Positions 39,568 through 63,746 of a stretch of 64,000 nt of DNA are shown here, in pieces. Below the pieces are notes generated by a model. It saw only the letters and a program-made list of their open reading frames with translations. It did not search any database and was not told the origin of the DNA. The DNA is from Candidatus Woesearchaeota archaeon (GTDB taxonomy: Archaea; Nanobdellota; Nanobdellia; Woesearchaeales; DSVV01), in the NCBI GenBank assembly GCA_018303325.1, contig JAGVYH010000002.1, forward strand, positions 17,246 to 81,245, given 5' to 3'. Every line of letters begins with the position of its first letter. The first letter of the stretch is position 1. A program made the translations under genes and the position numbers.

Positions 39568-39756
39568 ACGTTTGTGGGACGCAGTCAATGTCATTAAGTT
39601 AAGCAATTCCAAACCACCAGACGCTTTAAATCATGGGCATCTGCTCAGATTTCCAGCAAGACATTATCGCGTCATTTTGTCGTACCTTCAGACCATCAAA
39701 CCATATCACCATCTTACCTTTTTTCGTGAACGTGTCCAATCAGGTAGGAACTAAAC
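39568..39756 (-). repeat. Family B MITE-like intergenic element, copy B1 (minus orientation)
   Basis: Minus strand starts with GTTTAGTTCC and ends with GACTGCGTCCCACAAAC. The 60-aa track ORF 39572-39754 lies wholly inside it. Confidence 0.65.
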
Positions 39757-39778
39757 AAATATAAAAAAAAGATATAAT

Positions 39779-39912
39779 TATACTAAAAGCACAAAATAAT
39801 CAAACATTATTTTGTGCTTTTGTATATACAAAAGCAATTAATTACAAACTGGGTATTATGCCCCGCAGCTTGCTGCGACACCCAGTTTGTAATTAATTGC
39901 TTTTAGTATATA
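39779..39912. repeat. Family A copy A2, with a 47-bp GC-rich nested hairpin inserted in the second hairpin loop
   Basis: Same two stems as A1. Insert is ACAAACTGGGT...GCAGCTTGCTGC...ACCCAGTTTGT. Confidence 0.7.
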
Positions 39913-39948
39913 ACAATAAAACAAAGAATAAATCGTGAATAAACAAAA

Positions 39949-41031
39949 ATGAAAGCCGCAGTTATAAGTTTAGGAAGTGTAAGTTCGCAATGGACAATTG
40001 AAGCTATGAAAACCTATTTTAAGGTTGTTGATGCTATTGATATAAGGGGATTAGAGGTAAAGTTAGGAAAAAAAAATATTGAAATTCTTTACAACAGCAA
40101 ACAGTTAGGTGAATATGACTGTATTTACGCAAAAGGCTCGTTTAGGTATGCGCAAATATTAAGGGTTTTAACAACTGCATATTCTCATAAATGTTATCTT
40201 CCATTAAAAGCAGAAACATTTACTTTAGGCCATAACAAGCTTCTGACACAATTAAAACTGCAGGAAGCTGGAATTCCTATGCCAAAAACTTATCTTACAT
40301 CAACAACAATATCTGCTAAAAATCTTTTAGAAAGTATTACTTACCCTATTATTATGAAATTCCCAGAAGGTTCACATGGCAAGGGCGTGATGTATGCTGA
40401 CAGTTATGCTGGTGCAAACTCAATCCTTGATGCATTAACAACCCTTAACCAGCCGTTTATTATCCAAGAATATATTGAAACAGAGGGAACAGATATACGT
40501 GCATTTGTTGTCGGCAATAAAGTTGTTGCATCAATGAAAAGAAAGGCAGCGAAAGAAGAAAAAAGGTCAAATATCCATGCTGGCGGCACAGGAGAAGCAA
40601 TTGAATTAGACAGCCAAACAAAAAAGATTGCGATAAAAACAGCGAAAGCACTTGGGTGTGATATTTGCGGTGTAGATATTCTGGAAAGCGGTTTAGGGCC
40701 TTTGGTTATAGAAGTTAATTTAAGCCCAGGGCTGCAAGGGATTACTAAATCAACAAAAATTAATATTGCTGACAAGATTGCAAAGTTTTTGTTTGAGAAA
40801 GCATCTGAATTCAAAAATTATATGGAAGGAAAGGTTAAAACATCTGAAATATTGAATGAGTGCGGGATTGACAGAGAAAAGCATAATGATAAAGAAATTA
40901 TAGCCAACTTATCTTTGAGAGGAAAAAAGATAGTTCTGCCTGAAATTATTACAGAGATTAGTGATTTTGACGAGAACCAAGAAGTAACTATTTCTGCCAG
41001 CAAAGGCAAGGTTGTTATTAAGAAGTTTTGA
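39949..41031 (+). CDS. RimK-family ATP-grasp peptide ligase with C-terminal extension
   Basis: Pre-ATP-grasp and ATP-grasp motifs. Confidence 0.8.
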   Translation: MKAAVISLGSVSSQWTIEAMKTYFKVVDAIDIRGLEVKLGKKNIEILYNSKQLGEYDCIYAKGSFRYAQILRVLTTAYSHKCYLPLKAETFTLGHNKLLTQLKLQEAGIPMPKTYLTSTTISAKNLLESITYPIIMKFPEGSHGKGVMYADSYAGANSILDALTTLNQPFIIQEYIETEGTDIRAFVVGNKVVASMKRKAAKEEKRSNIHAGGTGEAIELDSQTKKIAIKTAKALGCDICGVDILESGLGPLVIEVNLSPGLQGITKSTKINIADKIAKFLFEKASEFKNYMEGKVKTSEILNECGIDREKHNDKEIIANLSLRGKKIVLPEIITEISDFDENQEVTISASKGKVVIKKF

Positions 41032-41062
41032 GTATTGTTTTAGAGTGTTGTTTTATATTGAT

Positions 41063-41158
41063 TATATACTAAAAGTGATTAATTTCCGAACAAATTAATC
41101 ACTTTTGTATATACAAAAGTGCAAAATAATGTTCGATTATTTTGCACTTTTAGTATAT
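41063..41158. repeat. Family A copy A3, inverted orientation with compensatory stem substitutions
   Basis: GCAATTAATT/AATTAATTGC in A1 is GTGATTAATT/AATTAATCAC here. GCACAAAATAAT/ATTATTTTGTGC is GTGCAAAATAAT/ATTATTTTGCAC. Confidence 0.7.
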
Positions 41159-41185
41159 TATAAACGTATAAAATTAAAAGATACT

Positions 41186-41266
41186 ATGAATTTATTCTTC
41201 ATGAGACTGTGGACTGCGTCCCACAAACTGGTTGAGAGCGGATTTACCATTAAGGTTAGTGGGTAC
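41186..41266 (+). repeat. Family B 3' module only (B5)
   Basis: TTCATGAGACTGTGGACTGCGTCCCACAAACTGGTTGAGAGCGG...GGTTAGTGGGTAC. Confidence 0.6.
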
Positions 41267-41423
41267 TAAACAATAAAAGACCTATTTTATATAAATTATA
41301 AGCATAAGACTTATATATGTGTTAAACACACATGATAATCAATAGTGTTTAGCATTGTGTTGTTCCTTTCCTTTCACAATGGAAATACTATGAACATTAT
41401 TCTATTTTAAAGGAGGGATATGT

Positions 41424-41807
41424 ATGGAAGAGCAACTAAAGAACGTGCTCATTGTTGATGATGAGCCGCATATTGTGAATTTGATTAAGCTTAGCTTAAA
41501 CAAAGACAAGTATAGTGTGATTGGCGCTTATTCTGCGAGAGAAGCATTGATGCACATTAATAAGACAACACCGGATATTGTTGTTTTAGACTTGATGATG
41601 CCTGGTGTAAATGGGTATGAACTATGCAAAGCATTAAGAGAAAACCCTAAAACACAGAATATACCTATTTTAATATTAAGCGCTAAGAGCCAGATGAATG
41701 ACAAACTGCATGCAATTGATGTAGGTGCAGATGATTACATGACAAAACCATTTGATCCGATGGAGCTTATTAAAAGAATCAAGCTAAACCTAAACATGGC
41801 ACAATAA
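41424..41807 (+). CDS. stand-alone response regulator receiver (CheY-like)
   Basis: VLIVDDEP, phospho-acceptor VVLDLMMPG and MTKPF motifs. Confidence 0.85.
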   Translation: MEEQLKNVLIVDDEPHIVNLIKLSLNKDKYSVIGAYSAREALMHINKTTPDIVVLDLMMPGVNGYELCKALRENPKTQNIPILILSAKSQMNDKLHAIDVGADDYMTKPFDPMELIKRIKLNLNMAQ

Positions 41808-41904
41808 ACAAAAAAAGGGATTGTTCGACATATAAAATTTTACATATGTTTTACGTTATCTCCAACGATATTTTACGTCTAACATTAAACATTCAATTAA
41901 ACAG

Positions 41905-42924
41905 GTGATTACCATAAAAAACAATAATGATGAAATAAAAGATAAAATAATTGAATTCCTGAAAACAACAACTATTGGAGAGCCATCTACTGAGATTTCC
42001 AAACAGATAGGGCATAACAGGTTAACTATCTCAAAATATCTGGAGGTTCTTCAGGCACAGGGCATTGTCACAAACCAGGAGATGGCACAGGCAAAACTGT
42101 GGAAACTTGCAGAGGAAGAAAAAATTCCCAGCATATTAATAGTCGACGATGAACCTCATGTAGTTAATCTTATCAAGCTAAGCCTAAACCCCGACAAATT
42201 CAAGGTATTTGAGGCATATTCAGGAAATGAAGCATTGGAAATAATAAGAAGCAACAAGATTGATTTAGTTGTTTTAGATTTAATGATGCCAGGAATGACT
42301 GGCTTTCAGGTCTGTAAAATTTTAAAACAAAACCCATTGACGTCAAATATTCACGTGATTATTTTAAGTGCAAAAGGCGAAATAAAAGATAAGATTAATG
42401 GTATAGAGCATGGCGCAGATGATTACATCACCAAACCATTTGATCCGCTGGAATTAGAAGCGAGGATAAGCTTAAGCCTAAAACATCCTGCAACTAATGA
42501 CTCCAAACATCCTGTAACAAAACTTCCAACAAAAAAAAATATCGAGGAGCAGCTGCATAATTTTATGTTTGAGAACAAGGATTTTCATGTATACAGCTTT
42601 AACTTAACTGGTCTTGACAAATTTGCAGAAAAGAAAGGGCATAAGAAAGTAAATGAGCTGCTTGTTTTGTTTACAAGACTGCTTAATAATAATATCTTGG
42701 AAAAAGAGTGTTTTTTAGGGCATACAATTTCAAACAGTTTTGTTGTTATCGGAGATATTAAAGGGCTTGACGACGAAATATCTAAAGAATTCAGGAAAAT
42801 ACTGCCGTACATCGATGAGCAGTCTCAAAGCTTAAAGCTGGATGTTAACAAGCTCAGCAATAAAGAGATACTGCAAAGAAATATTCATGCAACAGATGTG
42901 CTAAAAGAGATAAAAGTATCATAA
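41905..42924 (+). CDS. response regulator: winged-HTH, receiver and degenerate GGDEF-like domain
   Basis: N-terminal HTH (TISKYLEVL). REC domain (ILIVDDEP...VVLDLMMPG). C-terminal GGDEF fold start (LTGLDKFAEKKGHKKVNELL) with GGDEF replaced by ISNSF. GTG start. Confidence 0.7.
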   Translation: MITIKNNNDEIKDKIIEFLKTTTIGEPSTEISKQIGHNRLTISKYLEVLQAQGIVTNQEMAQAKLWKLAEEEKIPSILIVDDEPHVVNLIKLSLNPDKFKVFEAYSGNEALEIIRSNKIDLVVLDLMMPGMTGFQVCKILKQNPLTSNIHVIILSAKGEIKDKINGIEHGADDYITKPFDPLELEARISLSLKHPATNDSKHPVTKLPTKKNIEEQLHNFMFENKDFHVYSFNLTGLDKFAEKKGHKKVNELLVLFTRLLNNNILEKECFLGHTISNSFVVIGDIKGLDDEISKEFRKILPYIDEQSQSLKLDVNKLSNKEILQRNIHATDVLKEIKVS

Positions 42925-42943
42925 TTTTTTAGATTAAAAACAG

Positions 42944-44563
42944 TTGAGTTTAAAGTATATGGCACTTTCAGTAAAAAATAAACTGCTGGCAATGATTATG
43001 TTTTTAGTAGCTATGGCAGTATTTCTTTTTGGGGTTTATCTTCTTTATTTTTTTAATATAACACAATTTAATGCCACCGGCAATATTGTATTGGAAACTT
43101 CGCAAGAAAATACAAATGATAATAATAATAACCTAAAAAATATCAACAGTATCAACAACAATATAGGATTAGAAAATCTAATTATTGTAGGATTAGGAAT
43201 TATTGTGAGTTTGGCATTGGTTGGGTTAGCACTGATACAAATAATGATAAGACCATTGGATAAAGTGATTATTGGAACGCAGCTTGTTGCAAAAGGCGAG
43301 TTTCCTCAAATAGAAAAAACCAGCAACGACGAATTTGGAAGATTGGTTACTTCATTCAATCAAATGGTTGATAAGCTAAAAGAAGGAGAAAAAGAAGAAA
43401 AAAAAGCAAAAGGCATTGCAACAAAAGAAAAGACCAAGTCAGAACTGATTATAGAATCTATGGCTGAAGGGGTAATTGTCACAAACAAAGAACACAAGAT
43501 AAGCGTGTTCAACAAAGCAGCAGAGAATATATTTAACATTGAACAGAAAAAGGCATTAGGCCGGCACATACTGCAGCTAAACAAGTATGGAATTAATAAT
43601 ATTTATCTTGATCCGAAAAAGATTTGTGAAATTGATGAAAGTGTTGATGGGAAAATAAGCAAAGTATACAAAAATATTGAGTTTAAGATAAAACATCTTG
43701 ACAAAATCGTTGGCGCTACAATTTCTCCATTAACAGACGAGAAAGATAAGTTTTGCGGGTCTGTATGTGTGTTAAGAGATATAACAAACACAAAAAGAAC
43801 GGACAATATGAAGTCAGAGTTTATCAGCACAGTAAGCCATGAATTAAGAACCCCATTGACAAGCATAAAAGGCTACGCATCACTGCTTAATCTTGAGAAG
43901 CTTGGCAATATTAATTATCAGCAGTCAAATGCAATCAAAGTAATAAACCAAGAATCTGACAGGTTAATGGCAATAATAGACCAGCTGTTGGACATATCTA
44001 AATTAGAGGAAGGTTATAAGCTTAATATTCAAAAAACAAAGATTGGCGAATGCATAGATAATTCTCCTGCGCTTGAAACTGCAAAGAAAAAGAATATTTC
44101 TGTACAGAAAAACCTGCAAAATCTGCCTGAAATAGAAATCGACAAAAACAGGATAACAGATGTGTTTACCAATTTAATATGCAATGCGGTGAAATACAGT
44201 AAAGAAGGCAGCAGTATAAGGATTACAGCAAAAAAAAGAAATAAGAACATTCAATTCGATGTGATTGATAAGGGAATAGGAATAAAAAAAGATGATTTAA
44301 ATAAAGTATTTGAAAAATTTTATCAGGCAGAAGATCCTATGATAAGGCAGCAGGGCGGCTCTGGATTAGGGTTATCTATCGTCAAAAAAATCATAGAACT
44401 GCATAACGGCACAATAAATATACAAAGTGAATTTGGTTATGGGACAACTATTAGTTTTACGCTGCCATTGAAGTTCAATAATAATAAGATTAATGATGAT
44501 AATAAAAATAGTAAGTATAATAATTATAATTATATTAATAATCAAAGGGATAATAAGCTTTAA
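42944..44563 (+). CDS. sensor histidine kinase (TM-HAMP-PAS-HisKA-HATPase)
   Basis: H-box SHELRTPLTSIKGY and G-box GGSGLGLSIV. Asn-rich low-complexity tail. Confidence 0.9.
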   Translation: MSLKYMALSVKNKLLAMIMFLVAMAVFLFGVYLLYFFNITQFNATGNIVLETSQENTNDNNNNLKNINSINNNIGLENLIIVGLGIIVSLALVGLALIQIMIRPLDKVIIGTQLVAKGEFPQIEKTSNDEFGRLVTSFNQMVDKLKEGEKEEKKAKGIATKEKTKSELIIESMAEGVIVTNKEHKISVFNKAAENIFNIEQKKALGRHILQLNKYGINNIYLDPKKICEIDESVDGKISKVYKNIEFKIKHLDKIVGATISPLTDEKDKFCGSVCVLRDITNTKRTDNMKSEFISTVSHELRTPLTSIKGYASLLNLEKLGNINYQQSNAIKVINQESDRLMAIIDQLLDISKLEEGYKLNIQKTKIGECIDNSPALETAKKKNISVQKNLQNLPEIEIDKNRITDVFTNLICNAVKYSKEGSSIRITAKKRNKNIQFDVIDKGIGIKKDDLNKVFEKFYQAEDPMIRQQGGSGLGLSIVKKIIELHNGTINIQSEFGYGTTISFTLPLKFNNNKINDDNKNSKYNNYNYINNQRDNKL

Positions 44564-44577
44564 GAGGGAGGCAAAAA

Positions 44578-44952
44578 ATGGTTAAGACCCTTAAGATTCT
44601 TATTGCAGAGGATGAAGAAAATATAGTGAATCTTATCAGACTGATATTGGGCGATAAATATGAATTAGTTGTAGTAAATGACGGCGAGGAAGCAATTAAG
44701 CTGGCAGAGAACTTAAAACCTGATTTAATCATACTGGATGTAATGATGCCTAAGATAAACGGATTTCAGGTTTGTGAAACATTAAAGAAAGATAAAAGAA
44801 CTAACCAAATTAAAATAATCTTCCTCAGCGCAAAAGTGATGAAAAATGATGTCAGTAAAGGATTAAGCTGCGGCGCAATTGATTACATAAAAAAACCATT
44901 TGAGCCCGAAGAGTTTGAGAGGAGAATAAAATCTGCTATAGAACTAAGGTGA
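44578..44952 (+). CDS. stand-alone response regulator receiver
   Basis: ILIAEDEE, LIILDVMMP and IKKPF motifs. Confidence 0.85.
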   Translation: MVKTLKILIAEDEENIVNLIRLILGDKYELVVVNDGEEAIKLAENLKPDLIILDVMMPKINGFQVCETLKKDKRTNQIKIIFLSAKVMKNDVSKGLSCGAIDYIKKPFEPEEFERRIKSAIELR

Positions 44953-45080
44953 AATGAAAATTGACTGAAGAAATAAAGAGAATTGAAGAAAAAATTGAAG
45001 AGGCGAAAATATAGAGAAAATAGCAGATTACAACAATAGAGATTTGAACTTGTTTTGCTATTAATACAAATGGTGGGAAT

Positions 45081-48329: not shown

Positions 48330-48335
48330 GTAAGT

Positions 48336-50273
48336 TTATAGCTGTTCAACCAATCCTTTAAATTTATCCAAACCAATAGTCAGAATAAACTTAGCCAGTA
48401 ATGGACCTCTCTCTTTGCCAATTAATAGTTTATAAGCGCCTTTAAAAAATTCTTTTGGTTCTAGTTCCAAACTTTTACAAATATTATAAAATTCATCATG
48501 CAGTTCTTTGTCTGTCCATGATTTTTGGTGCAGTTTTTTGACGACAATATCTAACGCTTTTTTGATTCTATGATCAAGCTTTAACTCTTCAGGATTGATG
48601 GTTTCATTGAGTTTAAACTTGTATTCATCGCTTGCAAAATTATTTATCCATTGTCTGGCATCATGCATTCTCTGAAGAACAGAGTGTAATTCTGCGCCTG
48701 ACAAGTTGTTTGGTAAATGGCCAAGCATTCTTAATGTATCTAAAGCACGTTCATCATTGTCCATTACAGTCTGATTAACTATGGCAGCAAACTTCAAAGG
48801 AATTTGTACAGGCATCTGTTTAGGAAGCTCGCCAACATGGCTAAGCTCATAAATTCTAGTCTGCATCTTCTTTTCTTTTTCATCTGCCTCTTCTGCGCCA
48901 AAATAAATTCTTTCTGTCTTGTCAAATCTGTCGTAAAGAAATATGATGTTATTGTCCTGTGACGGGTCAAAGTCTATAACAGAATTAGGCCTTGATTTTA
49001 TTAATAGATATCTTACCATATGCGCTGGCAGGATATTAGTTATGTCTACAAACGCAATACCCTGGCCTTTAGAAGTTGACATCTTCTTTCCGCCAATATT
49101 AAAAAATTCATAGCCATTGCCTGTGAACTGCCTTGTTGAAGGATATGGTGGTGTGTAATCAAACAATTTATTTGCTAGTTCAACACCAAAAGTTCTTGAA
49201 CCGCCTTTAGTGAAATGATCTTTGCCGGCATACTCGCAAATTACTCCTTTAGAGAACCATTTTGCAGGCCATTCTACCTTCCATGGAAACTTGCCGTTGC
49301 CGTTGTAAGGAGAAATTTTGCCGTGATGACCGCATCCTTTTGCCCATTTGACAACATCATCCCTGCATTCATAAGTTAATAATTCTGTTTCAGTATCCCA
49401 TTCTGTTGCCATGGTTGTAGCAATCCTTCCGCATTTTTCGCAGATAACATTGAAAGGTATTTTTTTAGCAGCGGCAACATCATCACCATACAATTGCCTG
49501 TAAACATCCTGAACTTTAGGATAATTGTCGAGTACAAGCTTTATTGCTTTATTAAAAGTTCCATTTTCATAATCCATGCCTGTGCTTGTTATTTCTGCTT
49601 TTATACCCAATTCTTCAAACTTTTCTACACACTGCATAAAATAATAATCTCCAAAACTTTCATATCCTTTAACTGGAGAAGGAATGTTTCTAAACGGCAT
49701 GCCTAAATACTTGTCCCATGAATTATCTAATTCCTGATTAGGCTTGTCATAAGGATCTATATCATCGCTGCTGAGAACAAATTTGGCATTTAAACCAATA
49801 CTACGCATTGCTTTGGCAATTGCATCATGAATAATCCAGCCTCTGCCAGAGCCTACATGGATTGAACCAGAAGGTGTTTTCTCGTCGTAAACAAGATAAT
49901 AACCTACTTTGTCTACTACCGCCTTTAACTTTTTATCTTTTTCTACACGCTCTTTTATATCCAATGCTATCTGGTCAGCCCAATGATTGTGTTCTTCAGA
50001 ATCCTCATTATGTTTATGCTGCATTTTAGCCTTTTCTTTATGTTCTTTAGTTAGCTCTTTATGTTCTTTATCTGATTTTTGTGTGATATTTTGTTTAATA
50101 TCTTGGTTGGTATCTAGTTTAATATCTTGTTTAAGGTCTTGTTTAAGGTCTTGTTTAGGGTCTTGCTTAATGTTTTGTTTAATGCCTTGTTGAAGGTTTT
50201 GTTTAGTGTTTTGTTTAATATTTGGGTTAGAATTTTGTTTAATGTTTTGTTTAACAGATGAGTTAGTGTTCAT
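48336..50273 (-). CDS. lysK: lysyl-tRNA synthetase, class I (archaeal type), with N-terminal tetrapeptide-repeat extension
   Basis: HWAD...TPSGSIHVGSGRG class I HIGH region and KMSTSKG (KMSKS) motif. About 95 aa of [IL]KQ[ND] repeats precede the core. Confidence 0.9.
   Translation of the reverse strand: MNTNSSVKQNIKQNSNPNIKQNTKQNLQQGIKQNIKQDPKQDLKQDLKQDIKLDTNQDIKQNITQKSDKEHKELTKEHKEKAKMQHKHNEDSEEHNHWADQIALDIKERVEKDKKLKAVVDKVGYYLVYDEKTPSGSIHVGSGRGWIIHDAIAKAMRSIGLNAKFVLSSDDIDPYDKPNQELDNSWDKYLGMPFRNIPSPVKGYESFGDYYFMQCVEKFEELGIKAEITSTGMDYENGTFNKAIKLVLDNYPKVQDVYRQLYGDDVAAAKKIPFNVICEKCGRIATTMATEWDTETELLTYECRDDVVKWAKGCGHHGKISPYNGNGKFPWKVEWPAKWFSKGVICEYAGKDHFTKGGSRTFGVELANKLFDYTPPYPSTRQFTGNGYEFFNIGGKKMSTSKGQGIAFVDITNILPAHMVRYLLIKSRPNSVIDFDPSQDNNIIFLYDRFDKTERIYFGAEEADEKEKKMQTRIYELSHVGELPKQMPVQIPLKFAAIVNQTVMDNDERALDTLRMLGHLPNNLSGAELHSVLQRMHDARQWINNFASDEYKFKLNETINPEELKLDHRIKKALDIVVKKLHQKSWTDKELHDEFYNICKSLELEPKEFFKGAYKLLIGKERGPLLAKFILTIGLDKFKGLVEQL
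50089..50256. repeat. 12-bp tandem repeat, about 14 copies, consensus (C/T)TTGTTTAA(G/T)(G/A)T, inside the 5' end of the lysK ORF
   Basis: Consecutive 12-mers CTTGTTTAAGGT, CTTGTTTAAGGT, CTTGTTTAGGGT, CTTGCTTAATGT, TTTGTTTAATGC and so on. The period of 12 keeps the reading frame. Coordinates are within about 2 bp. Confidence 0.75.
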
Positions 50274-50352: not shown

Positions 50353-51924
50353 CTATACCTCTGGTTCATAATGAATTTTTAACTCTTCTGCGCGCGAAGG
50401 AAGTCTTAATTTTCTTAATGCTTTTGCCTCTATTTGTCTTATTCTTTCTCTTGTTAAACCAAAATCATTCCCAACCTCATCTAAAGTATAATTTCTTTGT
50501 TCATCTATGCCAAACCTTTTTTTTAAGACTGTTTCTTCTCTAGCTGTCAATGTTGCCAAACCTTTTCTTACTGCCATGTTTTGATCAGTTTTTTCTGCTC
50601 CTGATAATGGGCTTGGTGTTGTGTTATCAGGTATAAAATCCTCTAATGTTGAATGCCCATCTTCATCTTTCCCAATAATTATGCTTAAACTGATTGGCTC
50701 TAATCTTTCTATTCTTAATATTTTATTTACTCGTTCCAATGGAAGTTCAGATGCTTCAGCAATTTCTTCTGGTGTTGGTTTAGGAATTCCTTTTGCTATT
50801 AAATGCTGTTTTATGCGGAGAATTTTATTATATTGCTCAGTCATATGAACAGGAATTCTTATAGTCTTGCCCTCATCGGCAATGCCCCTTATAATCGCTT
50901 GTCTTATCCACCATGTTGCATATGTGCTGAATTTATTGCCTGTTCTGTAATCAAAATGCTCAGCAGATTTAATTAATCCTTCATTACCTAAACCAACAAG
51001 ATCAGATAGTTCTAAGCCTCGGTTTCTATATTTTTTTGCAATTGAGATTACTAATCTTAAATTTGCATTGACAAATGCATTTTTTAAACCCGTGATTTGA
51101 TTACTATAATATCTCACATCAGATATCACCCTTGCCAAATAAGTTTTACCTTTTTCAGTTGTTAATACTTTAGGAGAGATTGTTTCTTTAAGAAGAGTCG
51201 GAAATCTATGCTTTGAGCCATTATCACTAATTTCCAGAGTTAGAATGTCTTTACTAACTCTTCCAATTACATTATCAAAATAAGCAGGTGTAAGGTGTAT
51301 GCTTGCCAAATAAGACAAAACCCTGTCCTGATATTTCAATTTAGTTTTGTTGTTCCATTTAATACTCGATTGCTCTTTTAACTCTTCTTTTAACTCTTCT
51401 TCAAATTCAAATAAATCCATAACTGTTTTATAAAAAAATGAGACATAATCTTCTTTCTGTAATGTATAACTATTCTCATTTAATTTATCACTTTCTGTTG
51501 GATTATCGTCTTGTAATGATTTATATTGTCTTGATTGTTTTGATTGTTTTGGTTGTCTTCTTGTTTTTTTTTCTGGCAGTTGGCCATTTCTTTGCACAAT
51601 ATACTCTAAAAAAGCAGGCTCTTCATTATAATTAGGGGTTGAGATAAAATCATTATGCCTGAAACTAGGAATGGTTAAAGACATCATTAAATTAACCAAC
51701 TCGTCCATAAAATAACCATGAAGATTAAAATAACATAGCAGGGATAATTGGTTCCAAGCTTTTTCCTGCACCTGACCTAATTCTTGTTCTCCTTCCCTTG
51801 TTAAAAGAACTGAGCCTGTTCCAACTTCTTTAAGATACAATCTTAGCGGGTCGTACCTTTCCTTAGCTTCTGTTTCCTGTTCTTTTTTGCGGTAATGATC
51901 GACCATAAAAACAGGTAACAGCAT
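50353..51924 (-). CDS. rpoD: RNA polymerase sigma-70 factor (primary sigma, RpoD/SigA)
   Basis: Region 1.2 (DPLRLYLKEVG). Region 2 (YATWWIRQAI). Region 4 (LTRERIRQIEAKALRKLR). Likely start at MVDH. Confidence 0.9.
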   Translation of the reverse strand: MLLPVFMVDHYRKKEQETEAKERYDPLRLYLKEVGTGSVLLTREGEQELGQVQEKAWNQLSLLCYFNLHGYFMDELVNLMMSLTIPSFRHNDFISTPNYNEEPAFLEYIVQRNGQLPEKKTRRQPKQSKQSRQYKSLQDDNPTESDKLNENSYTLQKEDYVSFFYKTVMDLFEFEEELKEELKEQSSIKWNNKTKLKYQDRVLSYLASIHLTPAYFDNVIGRVSKDILTLEISDNGSKHRFPTLLKETISPKVLTTEKGKTYLARVISDVRYYSNQITGLKNAFVNANLRLVISIAKKYRNRGLELSDLVGLGNEGLIKSAEHFDYRTGNKFSTYATWWIRQAIIRGIADEGKTIRIPVHMTEQYNKILRIKQHLIAKGIPKPTPEEIAEASELPLERVNKILRIERLEPISLSIIIGKDEDGHSTLEDFIPDNTTPSPLSGAEKTDQNMAVRKGLATLTAREETVLKKRFGIDEQRNYTLDEVGNDFGLTRERIRQIEAKALRKLRLPSRAEELKIHYEPEV

Positions 51925-53373: not shown

Positions 53374-53441
53374 ACTACAACGTAAAGAAGAATAGAATAT
53401 AAAGTTAATGATTGAGTTTGGTTTATTAGAACTTATGTTTT

Positions 53442-53587
53442 TTTAGTTCCTGAGCGCAGCCACCTGTCTCATGATTATTTTTAGTTTATTTTATTTTATA
53501 CAACTATTTTAAAAAAATTAATTTTTCATGTGACTGTAGACTGCGTCCCACATGCGGATTGGGAGCGGGAAACAGGGTTGTGAGCAG
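53442..53587 (+). repeat. Family B copy B2
   Basis: TTTAGTTCC...GAGCGCAGCCACCTGTCTCATGA...TCATGTGACTGTAGACTGCGTCCCAC...ATTGGGAGCGGG...GTTGTGAGCAG. About 23-bp TIRs. Confidence 0.7.
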
Positions 53588-53621
53588 AAAAAAGATAGAA
53601 AAATCATATACTAAGAACTTA

Positions 53622-54170
53622 TCAATGATTATAATTCAAAAGATTCTCGTTCCTTCCTTTAACATAATGTATACTTTTGCTGTATTTGAACACTCTTCTT
53701 TCAATCTTTGTGTTTAATTGAAAATAAGCTCCAACCCTTTTTCTTAACATTTCAGGCTCAAACGGTTTAGTAATATATTCGTCTGCTTCTACGTCAACTG
53801 CTTTTCTTACATCCTCGTTTTGATGTTTTGCAGTAAGCATGATGATTGGTATCATTTTTGTTTCCTTGTTCGTCTTTAACAGCCTGCAAACTTGGTATCC
53901 ATCCATGTTTGGCATCATAATGTCAAGTATGATTAAATCAGGAGCTGAGTTTATTTTATTCAAAGCATTCTGTATTTTATTTAAAGCATCCTGTCCAGAT
54001 TCTGCCTTGATTACATCATACTCCTGCTCAAGTGTTAAAGCTATTAATTCTCTGATTGCATATTCATCATCAACAACCATGACCTTTTTTTTCTGATTCT
54101 TTGTGTCCATAATTGTAGGAAAGTAAATTGAATATATATAACTTGTTAAGCTGATACTATTAAGTACCAA
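53622..54170 (-). CDS. response regulator receiver protein (single domain, N-terminal extension)
   Basis: VMVVDDE and LIILDIMMP motifs. Probable true start at MDTKN. Confidence 0.8.
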   Translation of the reverse strand: MVLNSISLTSYIYSIYFPTIMDTKNQKKKVMVVDDEYAIRELIALTLEQEYDVIKAESGQDALNKIQNALNKINSAPDLIILDIMMPNMDGYQVCRLLKTNKETKMIPIIMLTAKHQNEDVRKAVDVEADEYITKPFEPEMLRKRVGAYFQLNTKIERRVFKYSKSIHYVKGRNENLLNYNH

Positions 54171-54219: not shown

Positions 54220-54303
54220 CTTTAAAAAAAACTTTAAATTCATGAGACGGGTGGACTTCGTCCTTAGTACGTGTTGTGAGCGGTAGACGAGATTGTGGGT
54301 AAG
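54220..54303 (+). repeat. Family B 3' module only (B6), more diverged
   Basis: TTCATGAGACGGGTGGACTTCGTCC...GTTGTGAGCGG...GATTGTGGGTAAG. Confidence 0.55.
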
Positions 54304-54367
54304 AAAAAGAGATAAATAAGATTAGAAAACAAAAAATCTAACTAAACAACTTCTTATTAATAATTAA

Positions 54368-55099: not shown

Positions 55100-55177
55100 T
55101 TTAATTTACTCTATTATTGCTGTATTGGATTTTCGTGTTTAAATATAATAAAATTTAAAGAAAAATAAAGAAAAAGA

Positions 55178-56490: not shown

Positions 56491-56623
56491 AAGATATAGA
56501 AAATATAAAGTTTGTGATTAAAATTATTCAAAGCCTTATGTTTCAGTGCAAAAGCTTAACAAATTTCAGGAAATCGATTAAATTAATGAAACTGATTAAT
56601 CCGAAACATATTTAAATAAAACC

Positions 56624-59248
56624 ATGTTCATGAGAGCTATGGAAAAGGATAAAAACAGCGACGAGAAAATCATTCCTGAAAAAACTGAAAAAACAAGCGA
56701 AGACTCAAATAAAGAAGCAGATAATAATGATAAGAATCTTGAAATTAATGATATTTCTGCGCCAGAAATAGAGAATGTTGAGAAAGGAATTACACCAATA
56801 GTAATAGAAGATGAGATGAAGACCTCTTATATAGATTATGCTATGAGTGTTATTGTAGGAAGGGCATTGCCTGATGTTAGAGACGGCTTAAAACCTGTCC
56901 ACAGAAGGATTTTGTTTGCGATGAATGAGATGGGGATGGCGCATAATAAACCTTATAAAAAATCAGCAAGAATAGTGGGGGACTGCCTCGGGAAATATCA
57001 TCCGCATGGTGATCTGGCTGTTTATGATTCAATGGTAAGAATGGCGCAAAACTTCTCATTAAGATATACATTAATTGACGGCCACGGCAACTGGGGCAGC
57101 ATTGATGGAGACTCTGCAGCGGCAATGAGATATACAGAATGTCGTCTGCAAAAAATCGCAGAAGACATATTAGAAGATATTGACAAAGAAACAGTAAATT
57201 TTGTTGATAATTTCGACGGAACATTAAAGGAACCAGTAGTATTACCTTCAAAGGTTCCTAACTTATTAATCAATGGCTCATCTGGAATCGCTGTAGGTAT
57301 GGCAACAAATATTCCGCCACATAATATTCAAGAGGTATGCAGCGCAGCCATTAATGTTATAGACAATCCAGAAATGCCAATAAAAGAATTAATGAATATA
57401 GTTAAAGGCCCTGATTTTCCAACCGGCGGCATTATATGCGGAAAACTTGGTATAAGCTATGCATACGGCACAGGAAGAGGAAAAATTCTTGTAAAAGGAA
57501 AAACACACATTGAAAAGCATAAAGAAAGAGAAGCAATCATTATAGATGAAATACCTTATATGGTCAACAAATCCACGTTAGTTGAAGAGATTGCTGACAA
57601 TGTCAAATCAAAAATGATAGAGGGAATCAGCGATATAAGGGATGAGAGTGACAAAAGCGGAATGCGTGTTGTTATCGAACTGAAGAAAGATTCCAATACT
57701 GATGTTGTATTGAATCAATTATATAAACATTCAAAATTACAGAATACATTTGGAATTATTATGCTTGCATTGGTTGATAACGAGCCAAGAATTCTTAATC
57801 TTAAAGAGATGCTTGAAGAATTTATAAAACACAGAAAAATCGTTGTCATAAGAAGAACACAGTTTGAACTGAAAAAAGCAGAGGAAAGGGCGCATATTCT
57901 TGAAGGCTTAAAAATTGCATTAAGCGATATAGACAATGCAATAAGAATCATAAAGGCAGCAAAAGATGTTAATATCGCCAGAACTGGTTTAGTCACAACT
58001 TACACATTAACAGAAATACAGGCACAGGCTATTCTCGACATGAAATTACAAAAATTAACTTCTCTGGAAACTGAAAAAATTCTTGAAGAATTAATAAATC
58101 TGATTGAAAAGATAAAGGATTTCAAGGAGATACTTGCTTCTGAAATAAGGATTAAGGATATCATAAAAAGTGAATTAGTTGAGATTAGCGAAAGGTATAA
58201 AGACGAGAGAAAAACAGAGATAAGCGAGAGCGAAGAAGAAGAGGAAATTGAAATTGAAGATCTTATCGAAGAAGAAGATGTTGTTGTTACAATCTCTCAT
58301 GGAGGTTATATCAAGAGAACACCTTTAAACGTCTACAAATCTCAGGGCAGAGGCGGCAGAGGTATAATCGCTGCAACAACAAAAGAAGAAGATTTTGTGG
58401 AGCATTTATTTATTGCCAATACTCATGATTATTTGCTGTTCTTTACTGACAAAGGCCAAGTGCACTGGCTGAAGGTATTCAGAATCCCTGAAGGCGCCAG
58501 ACAGGCAAAGGGCAAAGCAATTGTTAATTTGATTAATATTGAAGCAGGAAGTGAGAAAGGCAGCAATATAACTGCGTTTATACCAATAAAACAATTTGAA
58601 GCAACACAATATTTGGTGATGGTAACAAATAATGGAATTATTAAAAAAACCAGCTTAGCAGAATTTTCAAACCCAAGGCATGGCGGAATAAAAGCAATAA
58701 ACATTGAAGAAGGCGATGAGCTGGTCAATGTATTATTAACCGACGGCACTAAACAGATAATAATTGCTACAAAAGACGGTCTTGCTGTCAAATTCAACGA
58801 AGAAGATGTTAGAGAGATGGGAAGATCATCGATAGGTGTAATTGGGATAAGATTGAAAAGAAAAGTAAATGAAAAAGGGGAAATAACTGATAGTGATAAA
58901 GTTATCGGCGCAGTAATCGGCGATGATAACAAAACATTACTGACAATAACTGAAAATGGTTATGGAAAAAGAACTAGTATCGGTGAATACAGACTGATTA
59001 ACAGAGGCGGGCAAGGTGTTATCAACATAATCTGCAGCGAAAGAAACGGAAATGTTGTCGGAATAAAAAGTGTTTCAGAAGAAGATGAAATCATGCTGAT
59101 AAGCCAGAAAGGTATAATTATCAGAACAAGATGCAATTTAATATCAGTCATTGGAAGAAATACACAAGGAGTAAGATTAATGAAACTTGAAGAAGGCGAT
59201 AAAGTAGTAAGTGCTGCGAAGATAATTGGCGATGAAGGAAGCGAATAG
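56624..59248 (+). CDS. gyrA: DNA gyrase subunit A
   Basis: [28 protein letters not shown] and AAMRYTE active-site Tyr region. C-terminal beta-pinwheel repeats. Confidence 0.95.
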
Positions 59249-59277
59249 AATTATGTATTTAGTTTAATGATCTAATT

Positions 59278-60249
59278 TTGAATCTGGAGCAAAGTAAAAA
59301 TCCATGGGCAAAAATTTATATAGACAGCCAATTCATTAATATTATGAACAAAAAAGTATTAAATCATTATTTGGAATTTGGTACATTTACTAATCCTGGC
59401 TGTTATAAAGAATTTCTTAAACTTCTTCCAAATGATGTAAAAGAGCTTGGCAATTTAATATGCCATCAAGTCATTCACCGCAGAACTCTCAAAGAAGGCA
59501 ACACAAAAGCTAACAAAGATCTGCGCTATGGTGATATAAATAAATATCCGTGGTATAGATTAAGATGCGATGATGATATATTGCCTACTGCTGTTTCAAT
59601 GATTGCAGAATTATTAAGGCTTGATAACAGAGGATTTTTAGCAGAGAGAAAAGTAGAACATAAAATTGTCGTCACCTGCCGTTTTGTTGCAATTCTAATG
59701 GCTTCTATCTTAAAATCAAAAGGTATTCCATGCAGGGTTCGTTCAGGATTTGCCCCTTATTTTTTCAAAGGAAGCAGCGATCACTGGATTAATCAATATT
59801 GGGACAAAAGAAAACAAATGTGGATTACTTTTGACGCAGATGGATTCTTTGACAATACAATCGGGTTTGACCAATACAATATCCCTGAAACAAAATTTGA
59901 TTGGGCTGCGAATACTTGGATTGGGATCAGAATGGGGAAATTAGATGCCAACAATTTTATCAACGCAGGCGGATTCAAAGGATTAATACCTGTTCTTTGG
60001 GCAGTCTTTTATGATTTTCACAGTTTAATGAACAATGAAATTATTTATAATCAAATGCCAAGTTATATTTATTTTAAGTTTGATAAACTAAATGAAAAAG
60101 ATTTTAAAGAAATTGATGAATTAGCTAAATTAATGTTATACCCTGATAAAAATTTTGATAAATTAGTCAAAATTTGGAATACAAAAAAGAGATTTAGAAT
60201 ATTAAACAGTCCATTAGTCTGGGACAGCGATCATGTCAAATGGAAATGA
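59278..60249 (+). CDS. transglutaminase-like cysteine peptidase superfamily protein
   Basis: Cys (VVTCRFVA), His (DHWINQYW) and Asp (TFDADG) triad spacing typical of the transglutaminase-like core. Confidence 0.6.
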   Translation: MNLEQSKNPWAKIYIDSQFINIMNKKVLNHYLEFGTFTNPGCYKEFLKLLPNDVKELGNLICHQVIHRRTLKEGNTKANKDLRYGDINKYPWYRLRCDDDILPTAVSMIAELLRLDNRGFLAERKVEHKIVVTCRFVAILMASILKSKGIPCRVRSGFAPYFFKGSSDHWINQYWDKRKQMWITFDADGFFDNTIGFDQYNIPETKFDWAANTWIGIRMGKLDANNFINAGGFKGLIPVLWAVFYDFHSLMNNEIIYNQMPSYIYFKFDKLNEKDFKEIDELAKLMLYPDKNFDKLVKIWNTKKRFRILNSPLVWDSDHVKWK

Positions 60250-60297
60250 ATTGTTAATCATTTTTTTAAAAGAAATATATGTAAAATGAGGGATAAA

Positions 60298-60423
60298 ATG
60301 AGCGAATTAGACAAGTTCAGGAAAAAATTGAAAAAAGAGTTTAATGAGCATCTTGAAGTTGACGAAGACAGCGATCTGCCTGTACATGAAAAGTTTACTA
60401 AGGAAAAGAAGATAAAGAAGTAA
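60298..60423 (+). CDS. possible small protein (41 aa, Lys/Glu-rich)
   Basis: GAGGGA Shine-Dalgarno 4-5 nt upstream of ATG. Intergenic, with coding-like composition. Confidence 0.25.
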   Translation: MSELDKFRKKLKKEFNEHLEVDEDSDLPVHEKFTKEKKIKK

Positions 60424-60491
60424 AGCTCTTGCGAATGCTTGAATAAGCGACAAACCCAAGAAATAAGCTAAGAAATAAAAAGAAACCAAAA

Positions 60492-62036
60492 ATGAACAAT
60501 CTTACTGAAAGATTTAAAAAAATTCTTAATAAAAAATGGTACATTCAGGGGTTTAATGGCTGCCTGAATTTCTGTTTTGCTGCTCCGCAGTCTGGATTAG
60601 TTGGATGTCATAATAATCTTGGATATGGTTACACAGAAAAAGTATTTATTTTTAACAAAGATTATGTTGAATATCTTTATCTTGAAGATGATTTTAGAAA
60701 TATTGGGAATACGTTTCTTGAGAAATACAAGAAAAACAAGAATTATCTCAAAGAAGTGATGAAAAAGGATGCAGTAATTGTTGCTTCATCAAAAAAAACA
60801 ATGAGCAAGATAGACAACACAGAATTAACAAAATTAAACAAACAAGAGCTGGTTAAATTATATCAGGAAATGCAAACTGCCTATCATGGAATTCTGGATG
60901 TAAGCCATATTATTGAAGGCATTTCTTTTGTCGTCGAACCGCTCCTGAAAAAAAAGATTGAAGATGCATTAAAACTTGAAAGGCATGATCCTGAATTTAG
61001 AAATATATTCAATCTGCTTATGCAACCTGCAAAGCCATCCTTTGCGAATGAAGAGTACATTGATATACTTGAAATTGTAAAATTAGTGAAAAAAGACAAA
61101 GAATTGTTTTCTTTATTCAATAAGTTAACACTTCAAGAAACAGCTGAAAGATTAAACAAAAACATAAAAGAAAAAATTATTGCACACAGAAAAAGATTTT
61201 TGTACAACCAGCTAAATTATTATCACGGGAATCCTTTAAGTGAATTAGATTATATTTCTGAAATAAAAAAACTGCTTGAAGAAAATATCGATATTGACGA
61301 TAAGCTTAAGGCAGAAAAAGAGAGATACACTTTAAATGCTAAGATGAGAGGGGGGATTATACACAAATATAAGTTTAATGATGAGATTACTTCATTAATT
61401 AATATATCGATGATGGTTCTTCACTGGCAGGATAATAGAAAAAAGAATATTTTGACTGGTGTTTATTACATGAATCTTTTGCTTGGCGAGATTGGCAGGA
61501 GATATAACATTCCATTAGAAAAGATAAAAAGATATCTTCCAGAGGAGATAACTGAAGATAAGCTTGATAATTTTAGTATGGATGATGCTAATGAAAGGAT
61601 GAAGCGTTATATTATTTACAGCAAAAGAGAAAATGGAAAGCTGATATTTGAAATTTATACAAAAGAGGATTATGAAAAGATTATGGATATTTACAATAAA
61701 ACATATATAGAACAAAATGATATTCACGGCGCATCAGCATCACCAGGCAAGATAATTGGTGTTGCAAGGATATGCAAAACAAAAGAAGATCTTTTGAAAT
61801 TTAAGGTTGGTGAAATACTAGTTGCATCAATGACAAGGCCGGAATTTGTGCCTGCAATGAAAAAAGCATCAGCCATAGTAACTGATGAAGGCGGGTTAAC
61901 GTGCCATGCATCTATTGTTTCCAGAGAATTAGGCAAGCCATGCATTGTAGGAACAAAGATTGCCACAAAAGTGTTAAAAGACGGCGATATGGTAGAAGTG
62001 AATGCAAACCACGGCACTGTAAAGAAGATAAAATAA
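60492..62036 (+). CDS. PEP-utilising-enzyme mobile (swivel phospho-His) domain protein with uncharacterised 400-aa N-terminal region
   Basis: C-terminal GGLTCHASIVSRELGKPCIVG matches the swivel-domain catalytic His motif. Confidence 0.6.
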   Translation: MNNLTERFKKILNKKWYIQGFNGCLNFCFAAPQSGLVGCHNNLGYGYTEKVFIFNKDYVEYLYLEDDFRNIGNTFLEKYKKNKNYLKEVMKKDAVIVASSKKTMSKIDNTELTKLNKQELVKLYQEMQTAYHGILDVSHIIEGISFVVEPLLKKKIEDALKLERHDPEFRNIFNLLMQPAKPSFANEEYIDILEIVKLVKKDKELFSLFNKLTLQETAERLNKNIKEKIIAHRKRFLYNQLNYYHGNPLSELDYISEIKKLLEENIDIDDKLKAEKERYTLNAKMRGGIIHKYKFNDEITSLINISMMVLHWQDNRKKNILTGVYYMNLLLGEIGRRYNIPLEKIKRYLPEEITEDKLDNFSMDDANERMKRYIIYSKRENGKLIFEIYTKEDYEKIMDIYNKTYIEQNDIHGASASPGKIIGVARICKTKEDLLKFKVGEILVASMTRPEFVPAMKKASAIVTDEGGLTCHASIVSRELGKPCIVGTKIATKVLKDGDMVEVNANHGTVKKIK

Positions 62037-62113
62037 AAATCCCTGCCACCATAAGCGACGAAATATCCTCCAATAAACTAAAATTCCAACTGCCAAAAAA
62101 GAAGGTATTTAAA

Positions 62114-62386
62114 ATGAACTCTTACCAATTGTTTCAAGCTGGAATGTTTATCATATTTATAGGAATTATTGTATTAATAATTGCGTCATTTCTCAGCGCA
62201 AAAGATGAAACAAAAATCACAAGTGATAAAAGCAGTACTGCTAAATTCAGTGTCATCGGTATTTTCGGATTTATTCCGTTTGGATTTGGAAACGACAAAA
62301 AGATGCTGATAGTTACTTTAATCTTGGCAATAATTATTATGATTGTTTCTTTCTTTTTGTTTTATAGAAAGGTTGTATTTGTTTAG
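62114..62386 (+). CDS. small two-TM membrane protein
   Basis: GAAGG RBS before ATG 62114. Two hydrophobic helices. The upstream part of the track ORF overlaps the preceding gene, so I trimmed it. Confidence 0.45.
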   Translation: MNSYQLFQAGMFIIFIGIIVLIIASFLSAKDETKITSDKSSTAKFSVIGIFGFIPFGFGNDKKMLIVTLILAIIIMIVSFFLFYRKVVFV

Positions 62387-62534
62387 TTCCAAAGCGCAGC
62401 CACACATCTCATGAATTTTTAGTTTAGGATTTTTACTTTGTTCTTTTCGAATAGAATTCTTAAAAAAATATTCATGAGACGGTGGACTGCGTCCCTAGAA
62501 GGGATTGAGAGCAGAAAACAAGATTGAGGACGAG
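62382..62534 (+). repeat. Family B copy B3, begins at the stop codon of the small TM protein gene
   Basis: TTTAGTTCC...AGCGCAGCCACACATCTCATGA...TCATGAGACGGTGGACTGCGTCCC...ATTGAGAGCAG...ATTGAGGACGAG. Confidence 0.7.
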
Positions 62535-62586
62535 AAAAAGATAAAAGAATAAGAGAAACCAGTTAAACAAATAGATTAATCACATC

Positions 62587-63522
62587 TCAGCATATCATTT
62601 CAATCGCTTTCTCATACATTTTCAATTTGATTGGCGTTTTGCCGATGATTTCTGCGTCTGCATGCGCGATTACTGGCTCATCAGAGGTTATTTCCAATGA
62701 GGTTGCTTTAACGCATATAACATCTTTAAATTTATAGACTTGGGTTGTTGCAAAACCAAAAAGATATCTCAATATATCAGACAATTCTTTTTTCTGGAGA
62801 ATGAGAACATCGAAAAAACCGTCGTCATCTTTAGAATGCGGGATAATTTGAAATAAGTTCTGAAATTTTGCAATGTTGCATACAAGAACATAATATCCTG
62901 TATAAGTATTGCCATTTAGTCTTACACTGAGCAATTTTGGCTGATAATTGAATATTGCTTTCAGCAAACTTAAAGGATATGCAACTTCTCCAAACATCTT
63001 CTTTATCTTTGGCTCGACATTTTTGTACATTTCTGCGTCTATGCCTACGCCGCAGGCAATTGCAAAGTATCTGTTGTTTGCCCTGCCGATGTCTAAATCT
63101 TTTCTTCTGTTCTGGTGGATAATATTTATTGCTTTGTCAATCGATTTAGGAATGTTAAAGGCTCTTGCAATCATGTTAGATGTGCCGATAGGTATGATTG
63201 CTAGTCCTGGTGTCCTGTTCAATTTTGTTTTTATTGCATTATTTGGCTTTTTTAAAGTTCTGGCGAATTTCTTTTCCATCAAACCATTAATGGCTTCATT
63301 AATTGTACCGTCACCGCCAGCTACAATTACTACGTCTGCTTTAGAATTTTTTGCAAATGATGCTGCATCACCCTTCTTTTCAGTTATCTTAATATCAATG
63401 TCACCTTTAAAGAAACTTTGTATTTTATGAAGTATTAAATTGCAATCTTTATTTCCAGAGCATGGATTAATAATTAGTGTGTATTTTTGATGATTATAAT
63501 TAATTGGGGTTTCGCATTTCAT
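62587..63522 (-). CDS. diacylglycerol kinase catalytic domain (YegS/DgkA-like) lipid kinase
   Basis: VVIVAGGDGTINEAINGL DAGK_cat motif. Confidence 0.85.
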   Translation of the reverse strand: MKCETPINYNHQKYTLIINPCSGNKDCNLILHKIQSFFKGDIDIKITEKKGDAASFAKNSKADVVIVAGGDGTINEAINGLMEKKFARTLKKPNNAIKTKLNRTPGLAIIPIGTSNMIARAFNIPKSIDKAINIIHQNRRKDLDIGRANNRYFAIACGVGIDAEMYKNVEPKIKKMFGEVAYPLSLLKAIFNYQPKLLSVRLNGNTYTGYYVLVCNIAKFQNLFQIIPHSKDDDGFFDVLILQKKELSDILRYLFGFATTQVYKFKDVICVKATSLEITSDEPVIAHADAEIIGKTPIKLKMYEKAIEMIC

Positions 63523-63547
63523 TGTGTTTGTTTATTATTTGTATTTA

Positions 63548-63746
63548 TTTAGTTCCTGGCATGTCCAACCCGTTCACTAAGATAAATTAGTAAGTCGTTA
63601 GTCGTAGGTCGTTTGTCGTCAGCTGTTTTTTATGTTTTTCCGTTTACAACTAACGGCAAACGACTTACGACAAACAGTTTAATTAGTGAGACGGTGGACT
63701 GCGTCCCACAAACGGAAGGAGAGCTCAATAACGGGTTGTGAGCAAT
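63548..63746 (+). repeat. Family B copy B4, longer internal palindromic GTCGTT-rich segment
   Basis: TTTAGTTCC...degenerate left TIR...GTGAGACGGTGGACTGCGTCCCACAAACGG...GAGAGC...GTTGTGAGCAAT. Confidence 0.65.

Follow-up and report, generated by a model that had tools for sequence, protein, structure and literature searches.

Introduction

Correia elements (CREE) of Neisseria and the ERIC/IRU elements are multicopy, intergenic sequences of 100-250 bp that are bounded by terminal inverted repeats (TIRs), have the potential to form long hairpins and often lie by the ends of genes; the TIRs of Correia elements are 26 bp long and are accompanied by a TA duplication. Here we describe a repeat family, designated family B, in the DNA of a Candidatus Woesearchaeota archaeon, starting from a stretch of 64,000 nucleotides (hereafter the window; assembly GCA_018303325.1, contig JAGVYH010000002.1, positions 17,246 to 81,245). 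Like the Correia and ERIC elements, those of family B are short, non-coding, TIR-bounded and intergenic, and they form subtypes that differ by internal segments. They are unlike Correia elements in having 12-bp TIRs and an 8-bp duplication, in their unrelated sequence and in their archaeal (DPANN) host. The BOX elements of Streptococcus pneumoniae (boxA-boxB(n)-boxC) are likewise modular, with a short internal repeat in variable number and no defined hallmarks in the form of TIRs or target-site duplications (TSDs). Family B shares with BOX a variable internal repeat, 1-3 x GGTTGTGAGCGG-AAAA, but differs from it in having both TIRs and TSDs.

Another point of comparison is provided by the REP/REPIN-RAYT systems, in which extragenic palindromes occur as inverted doublets and singlets, with a bias to the 3' ends of genes and vertical inheritance at syntenic sites (PMC3116915; PMC3733652). 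A REP is an imperfect palindrome of 20-40 nt with an unpaired GTAG or CGTC tag (PMC3733652), and REPINs, which lack TIRs and TSDs, are tied to a flanked single-copy RAYT gene (PMC3116915; PMC3733652). Family B resembles REPINs in its inverted doublets and singlets, its 3'-end bias and its syntenic inheritance, and differs from them in that TIRs and TSDs are present and a flanked Y1 gene is not.

A 2024 census of prokaryotic MITEs (miniature inverted-repeat transposable elements) placed 'a Woesearchaea genome' among the most MITE-dense archaea, at 105 MITEs/Mb (PMC11602168). In its available text this census reports counts only, with no family anatomy, TSD lengths, subfamilies or distribution (PMC11602168). 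Its MITEs agree with family B both in kind and in phylum-level host, and family B is possibly among them. The original prediction, which was made from the letters of the window, called the family previously unnoticed. That term holds only in part, since the census had already counted one Woesearchaeal genome among the richest in MITEs, with no description of any family (PMC11602168). No other paper linking MITEs to Woesearchaeota turned up in our literature search. Below, we present evidence that family B is very probably a genuine MITE, a DNA transposon of the non-coding and non-autonomous type, and is restricted to one narrow woesearchaeal clade.

Terminal inverted repeats, target-site duplications and an empty site

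We collected approximately 150 unique copies of family B (identical copies collapsed) from 1.19 Mb of contigs of 0.30-0.36 G+C, which belong to one narrow clade, and derived the anatomy of the element from an alignment of all of them. The complete unit is non-coding and 173-263 bp long, composites reaching 438 bp; both lengths are below the approximately 500 bp that bounds MITEs. It consists of GTATTTGTTTAG, a left arm, an interior, TTCATGAGACGGTGGACTGCGTCCCACAAAC, the 1-3 repeats of GGTTGTGAGCGG-AAAA, an A-rich tail ending in ...AAGAAACAGAACATCAG, and CTAAACAAATAC; a near-invariant core, TCATGAGACGGTGGACTGCGTCCCACAAAC, lies within the right arm. The outer 12-mers, GTATTTGTTTAG and CTAAACAAATAC, are inverted repeats of each other, and it is these that constitute the TIRs. 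The 23-bp sequences previously proposed for this role are internal arms, and the TTTAGTTCC motif of the original prediction is the inner edge of the 12-bp TIR.

Of the 40 unique TIR-bounded units, about 36 have an inverted TATTTGTTTAG/CTAAACAAATA pair that encloses the core at a spacing of 173-263 bp, and since the bases flanking these pairs are mostly G and C, the TIR could be extended to 12 bp. The 8 bp directly outside the 12-bp ends match each other at all 8 positions in eight units and at 7 positions in six more (14 of the 40 unique elements). For mismatched pairs of left and right flanks, which served as the null, only 0.8% reach 7/8 (binomial p = 1.5e-19 for the excess; an offset-tolerant version was also run). 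The duplicated octamers vary from copy to copy and are AT-rich, and include GATTTTTC, TTAGATTT, AAATAAAC, CAAATACT and TCTTAATC.

An empty counterpart of one insertion was found in contig L135, which derives from the window organism's sample and carries a single AAAATAATT in the context ...CTTAAAATAATTATAAC... The filled site, in contig L011 of the JACQSP metagenome-assembled genome (MAG), reads ...CTT AAAATAATT-AG-TATTTGTTTAG...(203 bp)...CTAAACAAAT-AAAATAATT ATAAT..., and the flanks of the 2 sites are 89-92% identical. A second comparison concerns the element at L057:1795; L127 lacks it in the orthologous stretch between genes, where the boundaries are blurred by divergence. Within the window, the outer pair of flanks of the composite at 63541-63962 matches at 7 of 8 positions, and (A)ATTATTT occurs three times around two adjacent elements, at 63534-63540, 63828-63834 and 63965-63971, which is the pattern expected of two successive insertions into one target.

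In the aggregate, TIRs, 8-bp TSDs and an empty site are what defines a MITE generated by a DDE-type transposase; the class of the transposase is our inference. The designation of family B as a MITE-like intergenic repeat family, for which a search for TIRs and TSDs had been suggested as a check, is thus borne out. The element inserts into AT-rich intergenic DNA with duplication of 8 bp of the target. By the mechanism that we favour, a DDE-type transposase supplied in trans would recognise the 12-bp ends and either cut and paste or copy the element. The copies decay by truncation, which leaves solo 3' modules, by exchange of their interiors and through the nesting of other small hairpin elements within them.

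Copies in the window and subfamilies

Direct reading of the sequence confirmed all six of the repeat copies originally placed in the window, which has no others. The core 17-mer, GACTGCGTCCCACAAAC, has 4 matches at <=3 mismatches in the window (0.01 expected), and TTTAGTTCC has 7 matches (0.73 expected). A core profile hidden Markov model (HMM) built from 48 copies picks exactly these six, all of them at 39.5-63.8 kb, with zero copies in window positions 1-39,000, and among the families reported by a repeat finder, D2, D3, D15 and I22 correspond to the 3' module and the 5' arm. The copy boundaries first given were too narrow; the true ends, and the coordinates of every module, which we checked, are presented in Table 1. 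The same HMM detected three more copies in contig L001, which is the same genome beyond the end of the window. The distribution is strongly uneven: there are 0 copies in 39 kb of tightly packed genes (1-39000) and nine within about 35 kb (39500-64000 plus the 10 kb beyond, in L001), eight of the nine sharing one orientation.

Table 1. Coordinates of family-B copies, their modules and an associated element in the window
Feature	Position	Strand	Remarks
Complete copy, TIR to TIR	39528-39762	-	5' TIR 39751-39762; 3' TIR 39528-39539
Core 17-mer of this copy	39570-39586	-	left arm of variant type (CCTACCTGATTGGACACGTTCAC)
Interior of this copy		-	~150 nt, half of it a GGTAAGA/GGTTTGA-type hairpin arm; without GTTGTGAGC repeats
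Truncated copy	41190-41277	+	without left TIR and left arm
Parts of this copy		+	right arm and core 41212-41228; one TTGAGAGCGG repeat; TIR-R-like CTAAACAATAA 41266-41276
Complete subfamily-B1 copy, degenerate ends	53437-53613	+	left end GTTTTTTTAG 53437-53446
Left half of this copy		+	left arm 53447-53474; AT-rich interior with TTTTAAAAAAA 53475-53522
Right half of this copy		+	right arm and core 53523-53555; two GTTGTGAGC-type repeats 53556-53587; A-rich tail 53588-53613
Probable TSD AGAACTTAT of this copy	53428-53436 and 53614-53622		exact 9/9 direct repeat abutting both ends
Truncated copy	54222-54353	+	without left arm; weak core-profile match, E 0.074
Parts of this copy		+	AT-rich TTAAAAAAAACTTTAAA segment; right arm with variant core GGACTTCGTCCTTAG; two GTTGTGAGC/GTGGGT repeats; tail
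TIR-R-like end of this copy	54342-54352	+	CTAAACAACTT
Complete subfamily-B1 copy, 200 bp	62375-62574	+	TIR-L 62375-62386; left arm 62387-62414; AT-rich interior 62415-62469
Right half of this copy		+	right arm and core 62470-62500; repeats 62501-62534; tail and TIR-R 62535-62574
Subfamily-B2 copy	63541-63827	+	TIR-L GTATTTATTTAG 63541-63552; type-ii left arm 63553-63580
Middle of this copy		+	long hairpin of GTCGTnn heptads 63581-63689; right arm and core 63690-63713; repeats 63714-63749
Right part of this copy		+	nested TATAG-bounded hairpin ~63759-63810; degenerate right end 63816-63827
Separate 128-bp element	63835-63962	+	same TIRs (TATTAGTTTAG...CTAAACAAATA); without family-B core

The alignment resolves two subfamilies. 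In B1, to which the window copies 53442 and 62382 belong (copies are designated here by the start positions first assigned to them), the left arm, TGGGCGAAGCCACCCGTCTCATGA, is complementary to the right arm, and the interior is AT-rich with a conserved TTAAAAAAAC(K)TAAA. In B2, represented in the window by copies 63548 and 39568, the left arm, TGGCATGTCCAACnnGTTCACTATGA, pairs poorly with the right arm and the interior is a long hairpin, the arms of which are composed of 3-5 tandem units of 7-8 nt in at least six sequence flavours (GTCGTnn, GACGTnn, AGGTGCT, GTTCTTC, GGTAAGA/GGTTTGA and GAAAGCTT). The original prediction of complementary arms around an AT-rich core therefore holds for copies 53442 and 62382, that is, for one subfamily only. 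Complementarity is poor in copies 63548 and 39568, whose left arm is of another type (GGCATGTCCAAC..GTTCAC, or a variant of this), and their interiors are a long hairpin of 7-nt sub-repeats and about 150 nt of mixed sequence, respectively. Nor do all copies share one tail, the GTTGTGAGC tail repeats being missing from copy 39568. Longer composites that contain a second left end or other nested small hairpin elements were observed in L032, L116 and L166 and at window positions 63541-63962.

Hairpins of similar kinds also occur outside family B. Long intergenic hairpins of 3-5 tandem 7-8-nt units stand alone, with no family-B sequence, at L162:5307, L106:8124, L101:1635, L142:8741 and L113:10438 (minus strand); they have one architecture and several multicopy flavours (GTCGTnn, GAAAGCTT, AGGTGCT and GGTAAGA/GGTTTGA). 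A second dispersed family of hairpins, about 48-100 nt long and of the form TATAC-TAAAAGCACAAAATAAT...ATTATTTTGTGCTTTT-GTATA (repeat-finder families D4, D8 and I1-I2), is found in the window at 24714-24813, 33805-33852, 39779-39843 and 41058-41157, and is also nested within family-B elements of the related contigs L166 and L149. Hairpins of about 48 nt bounded by TATAG...CTATA (window 63759-63810; L063 9085-9180) differ from each other in stem sequence, with the pairing kept.

Distribution among genomes

The G+C content of the host genome is approximately 30%, and NCBI assigns a DAGK protein identical to that of the host to a Candidatus Woesearchaeota archaeon. In an exact scan that covered one genome per species, the core 17-mer occurred about 45 times in one MAG, Candidatus Woesearchaeota JACQSP01 (GCA_016205905.1), and outside this MAG the same scan yielded single chance matches only, in unrelated high-G+C bacteria. 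In a scan of metagenomes, true copies (profile score >40 bits) were confined to 0.30-0.36 G+C contigs of three Joint Genome Institute (JGI) samples, one of which also contains the window organism. Viral contigs gave 17-mer matches at chance level only (~19 bits). No copy was detected in relatives whose DAGK is 59-62% (L065, L067) or 86% (L066) identical.

Genomic context and insertion history

Of 149 unique copies, a single one falls within a long open reading frame (ORF), and 38 are located at contig ends. Copies were found between convergent genes in 38 cases, tandem genes in 62 and divergent genes in 10, as compared with a background of 146/515/117 (chi-square p = 8e-5), and their orientation in tandem contexts is unbiased (9 vs 8). 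The same intergenic, 3'-end pattern is known for bacterial REPs and MITEs. The simplest explanation for the bias to the 3' ends of genes is that insertions into promoters and genes are selected against; because a bias in location can arise from selection against disruption, it is by itself no proof of a host function.

Contig L063 (JACQSP010000139) is the syntenic orthologue of the window at 53-64 kb, the proteins of the 2 genomes being 84-97% identical and their four-fold-site identity 0.71. Elements are present in the same four intergenic regions of both, in like orientation, and both contigs carry the locus-specific variants CCCTAG... (copy 62382) and ACATGCGG (copy 53442). These shared variants indicate that the four insertions predate the split between the window and L063 lineages. 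In 2 of the 4 orthologous copies the interior has been exchanged: the window version is AT-rich, the L063 version a GAAAGCTT-type hairpin. In addition, two other TATAG-bounded hairpins interrupt one family-B arm in L063. Because the orthologue of a solo 3' module in L040 is a full B2 copy in L150, truncation is the best reading of the window fragments 41186 and 54220. Arms and tails of orthologous copies are about 89% identical. Four-fold-site identity being 0.71 overall and 0.72-0.89 in adjacent genes, this value is not clearly above the local neutral level, and we therefore make no claim of purifying selection.

One insertion has become part of a coding sequence. The DUF131/TIGR00304 membrane-protein ORF at 62114-62386 (+) ends in ...VVFV*, encoded by GTATTTGTTTAG, so that its last codons and its TAG stop come from the left TIR of the element, and the same is true of the JACQSP orthologue (L063 1517-1738). 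In L066 the DUF131/TIGR00304 gene and the MITE are both absent, with 4 nt separating the ends of the two flanking genes.

Alternative explanations

It should be noted that several observations weigh against the conclusion that family B is a MITE. Within the 1.19 Mb we found no autonomous element, whether as TIR pairs with TSDs that enclose an ORF, as TIR pairs whose interval is mostly one ORF, or as multi-copy ORFs with unrelated flanks; consequently we name neither the transposase nor its family. Duplications of 8 bp are made by several DDE families (IS6, ISL3, IS66, IS1595 and some members of IS5 and IS256), and the length of the TSD cannot choose among these. Clean empty sites are limited to the one comparison between L135 and L011, and the TSDs are decayed in most window copies. 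Many of the insertions are old, as is evident from the four copies that the window and L063 have in synteny. Finally, conservation is much stronger in the core than in the remaining parts of the element, a difference that shared ancestry alone need not explain, although the sampling is biased in this respect in that loci were fetched via the exact core 17-mer.

We considered how far the same observations could be accommodated by explanations that do not involve a DDE transposon. It is extremely improbable that the copies are genes for a structured non-coding RNA or act as cis-regulatory RNA leaders, a small structured RNA having been suggested earlier for the conserved tail. They do constitute G+C-rich islands within a 30% G+C genome, and single copies fold strongly in comparison with shuffled sequences (z = -4.8 and -6.0); yet copy 39568 folds no better than its shuffles, Rfam gives nothing at gathering thresholds and, at relaxed thresholds, only sub-threshold generic hairpin (microRNA) noise. 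The proposed RNAalifold analysis, applied to 36 aligned 3' modules, returned only an invariant 3-bp stem of -0.2 kcal/mol, with zero covarying pairs. Moreover, a copy's own arms pair no better than arms exchanged among copies (permutation p = 0.29), the two strands are equally stable over 30 copies (15 vs 15, in a test for the signature of G-U pairs), and both orientations relative to genes occur. The alternative that REP/REPIN-like sequences are moved as single-stranded DNA by an HUH Y1 transposase of the IS200/RAYT type, each arm being a small palindrome (GTGGAC-TGC-GTCCCAC) and full copies being inverted doublets, is in keeping with the doublet hairpin architecture of B1 copies and with solo 3' modules that look like REP singlets. 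It could also call upon a 146-aa IS200-like Y1 transposase (PF01797, E = 1.9e-30) that directly adjoins a family-B doublet in L034. HUH transposition (IS200/IS605, RAYTs) makes no TSD, so that 12-bp TIRs and 8-bp TSDs are not its products, and we consider this origin very improbable. The core does hold GGAC-TGC-GTCC, in which a CGTC occurs, but the stem supported across copies, and thus the consensus mini-palindrome, is just 3 bp. As for the L034 gene, which is the only Y1 gene found and lies between TATTTTTTTAG and CTAAATAAATA, it is not a single-copy gene flanked by repeats. The end hairpins beside it, CCCAGCACTTTAGTGCTGGG, differ from the ends of family B, and Y1 homologues of 74-88% identity in other metagenomes have matching IS200 ends and no family-B sequence. 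On these grounds we rejected the L034 protein as a RAYT-like partner of family B; its own ends, its homologues without family-B flanks and the inability of HUH enzymes to generate TSDs indicate that the gene is an ordinary IS200 that landed at a TTTAG^TTC junction of a MITE.

An exapted host element in cis, now serving, irrespective of how it arose, as a bidirectional transcription terminator, a 3'-end hairpin, an insulator or a putative protein-binding site between genes, is unlikely, although it has more in its favour. Archaeal RNA polymerase terminates at oligo-T, and T-runs read inward from both ends of the element (TATTTGTTTAG, CTTTTTT, GTTTTTTTAA) as well as occurring in the AT-rich interior. 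Convergent genes have an excess of copies between them and divergent genes a deficit, the tails of copies abut stop codons 60-90 nt from the core, four copies are kept at syntenic sites in two species, and the core is near-invariant. Against this, the conservation of orthologous copies does not clearly surpass the local neutral level; related genomes lack the element at corresponding junctions, where the intergenic gaps are 4-12 nt; the orientation in tandem contexts is unbiased; and purifying selection on a selfish element predicts an equal bias in location. Neither is the TIR a general promoter, for the following ATG lies at no set distance from it (19-155 nt). Use by the host, as a terminator for example, is accordingly unproven. 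There is, in addition, a slim chance that the right arm, the ACAAAC motif and the GTTGTGAGCGG repeats, which form the near-invariant internal module, owe their conservation to more than common descent and constitute a putative protein-recognition platform, with subterminal sites for the transposase or a site for a host factor, and that the central TCATGA palindrome is a favoured landing pad for a second, independent class of small mobile hairpins. The hairpins of that class would be those with 7-8-nt periodicity, of which there are at least six flavours and which also occur alone between genes. If this were true, the two would together make up a nested 'hairpin-in-MITE' system that is particular to the streamlined genomes of these DPANN archaea.

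Three further candidates were rejected. The TIR does not behave as an outward TATA box for leaderless genes, given the scattered ATG distances, and many downstream genes have a TTTATA box of their own. The attC sites of integrons have the signature R'' RYYYAAC ... GTTRRRY R' at the stem base and are associated with promoterless cassettes in the same orientation and with variable gene content. The stem base of family B is of the opposite order, GTT...AAC (no integrase search was made), and its flanking genes are housekeeping genes (GyrA, lysyl-tRNA synthetase (LysRS), PTH2) in conserved synteny. For an archaeal origin of replication, with an origin recognition box (ORB) and DNA unwinding element (DUE), the copies are far too many and ORB-like sequence is lacking, a judgement made by reasoning only.

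The IS200-like element of L034 occupies 945-1555 and has identical end hairpins (CCCAGCACTTTAGTGCTGGG); its insertion point lies exactly where the TIR (…TTTAG) of the family-B unit meets the arm (TTC…), and the loops of its hairpins and of those of its homologues all read TTTAG.

Significance and neighbouring sequences

We regard family B as a new, or at least an uncharacterised, family of an ordinary kind of element. Two of its features go beyond the routine, namely the nested, independent heptad-repeat hairpins and the strikingly conserved core, and a new mechanistic question would arise only if one of these proved functional. DPANN archaea have very small, streamlined genomes. With about 1 MITE copy per 8 kb of sampled DNA and at least 2 other families of hairpin repeats, selfish DNA still takes a visible share of DPANN intergenic space. 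There are practical consequences as well: as judged from the 38 of 149 copies at contig ends, family B breaks assemblies, and it can mislead gene calling, as with the ORF whose stop codon lies within a TIR. Shared and polymorphic insertions serve as lineage markers in strain-level population studies of these uncultured archaea.

The genes neighbouring the copies encode class I LysRS, PTH2 and GyrA and, just past the end of the window, PCNA and an RNase J/beta-CASP protein. A 523-aa ORF at 50353-51924 (-) contains sigma-70 regions 1.2, 2, 3 and 4, its best match being RpoD (E = 7e-111, below the equivalog cut-off). A bacterial-type sigma factor is odd in an otherwise archaeal genome (PCNA, PTH2, class I LysRS), and was probably acquired horizontally. 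The class I LysRS ORF, at 48336-50273 (-), contains thirteen tandem 12-nt units, encoding a 4-residue repeat, at its N-terminal end (50065-50266).

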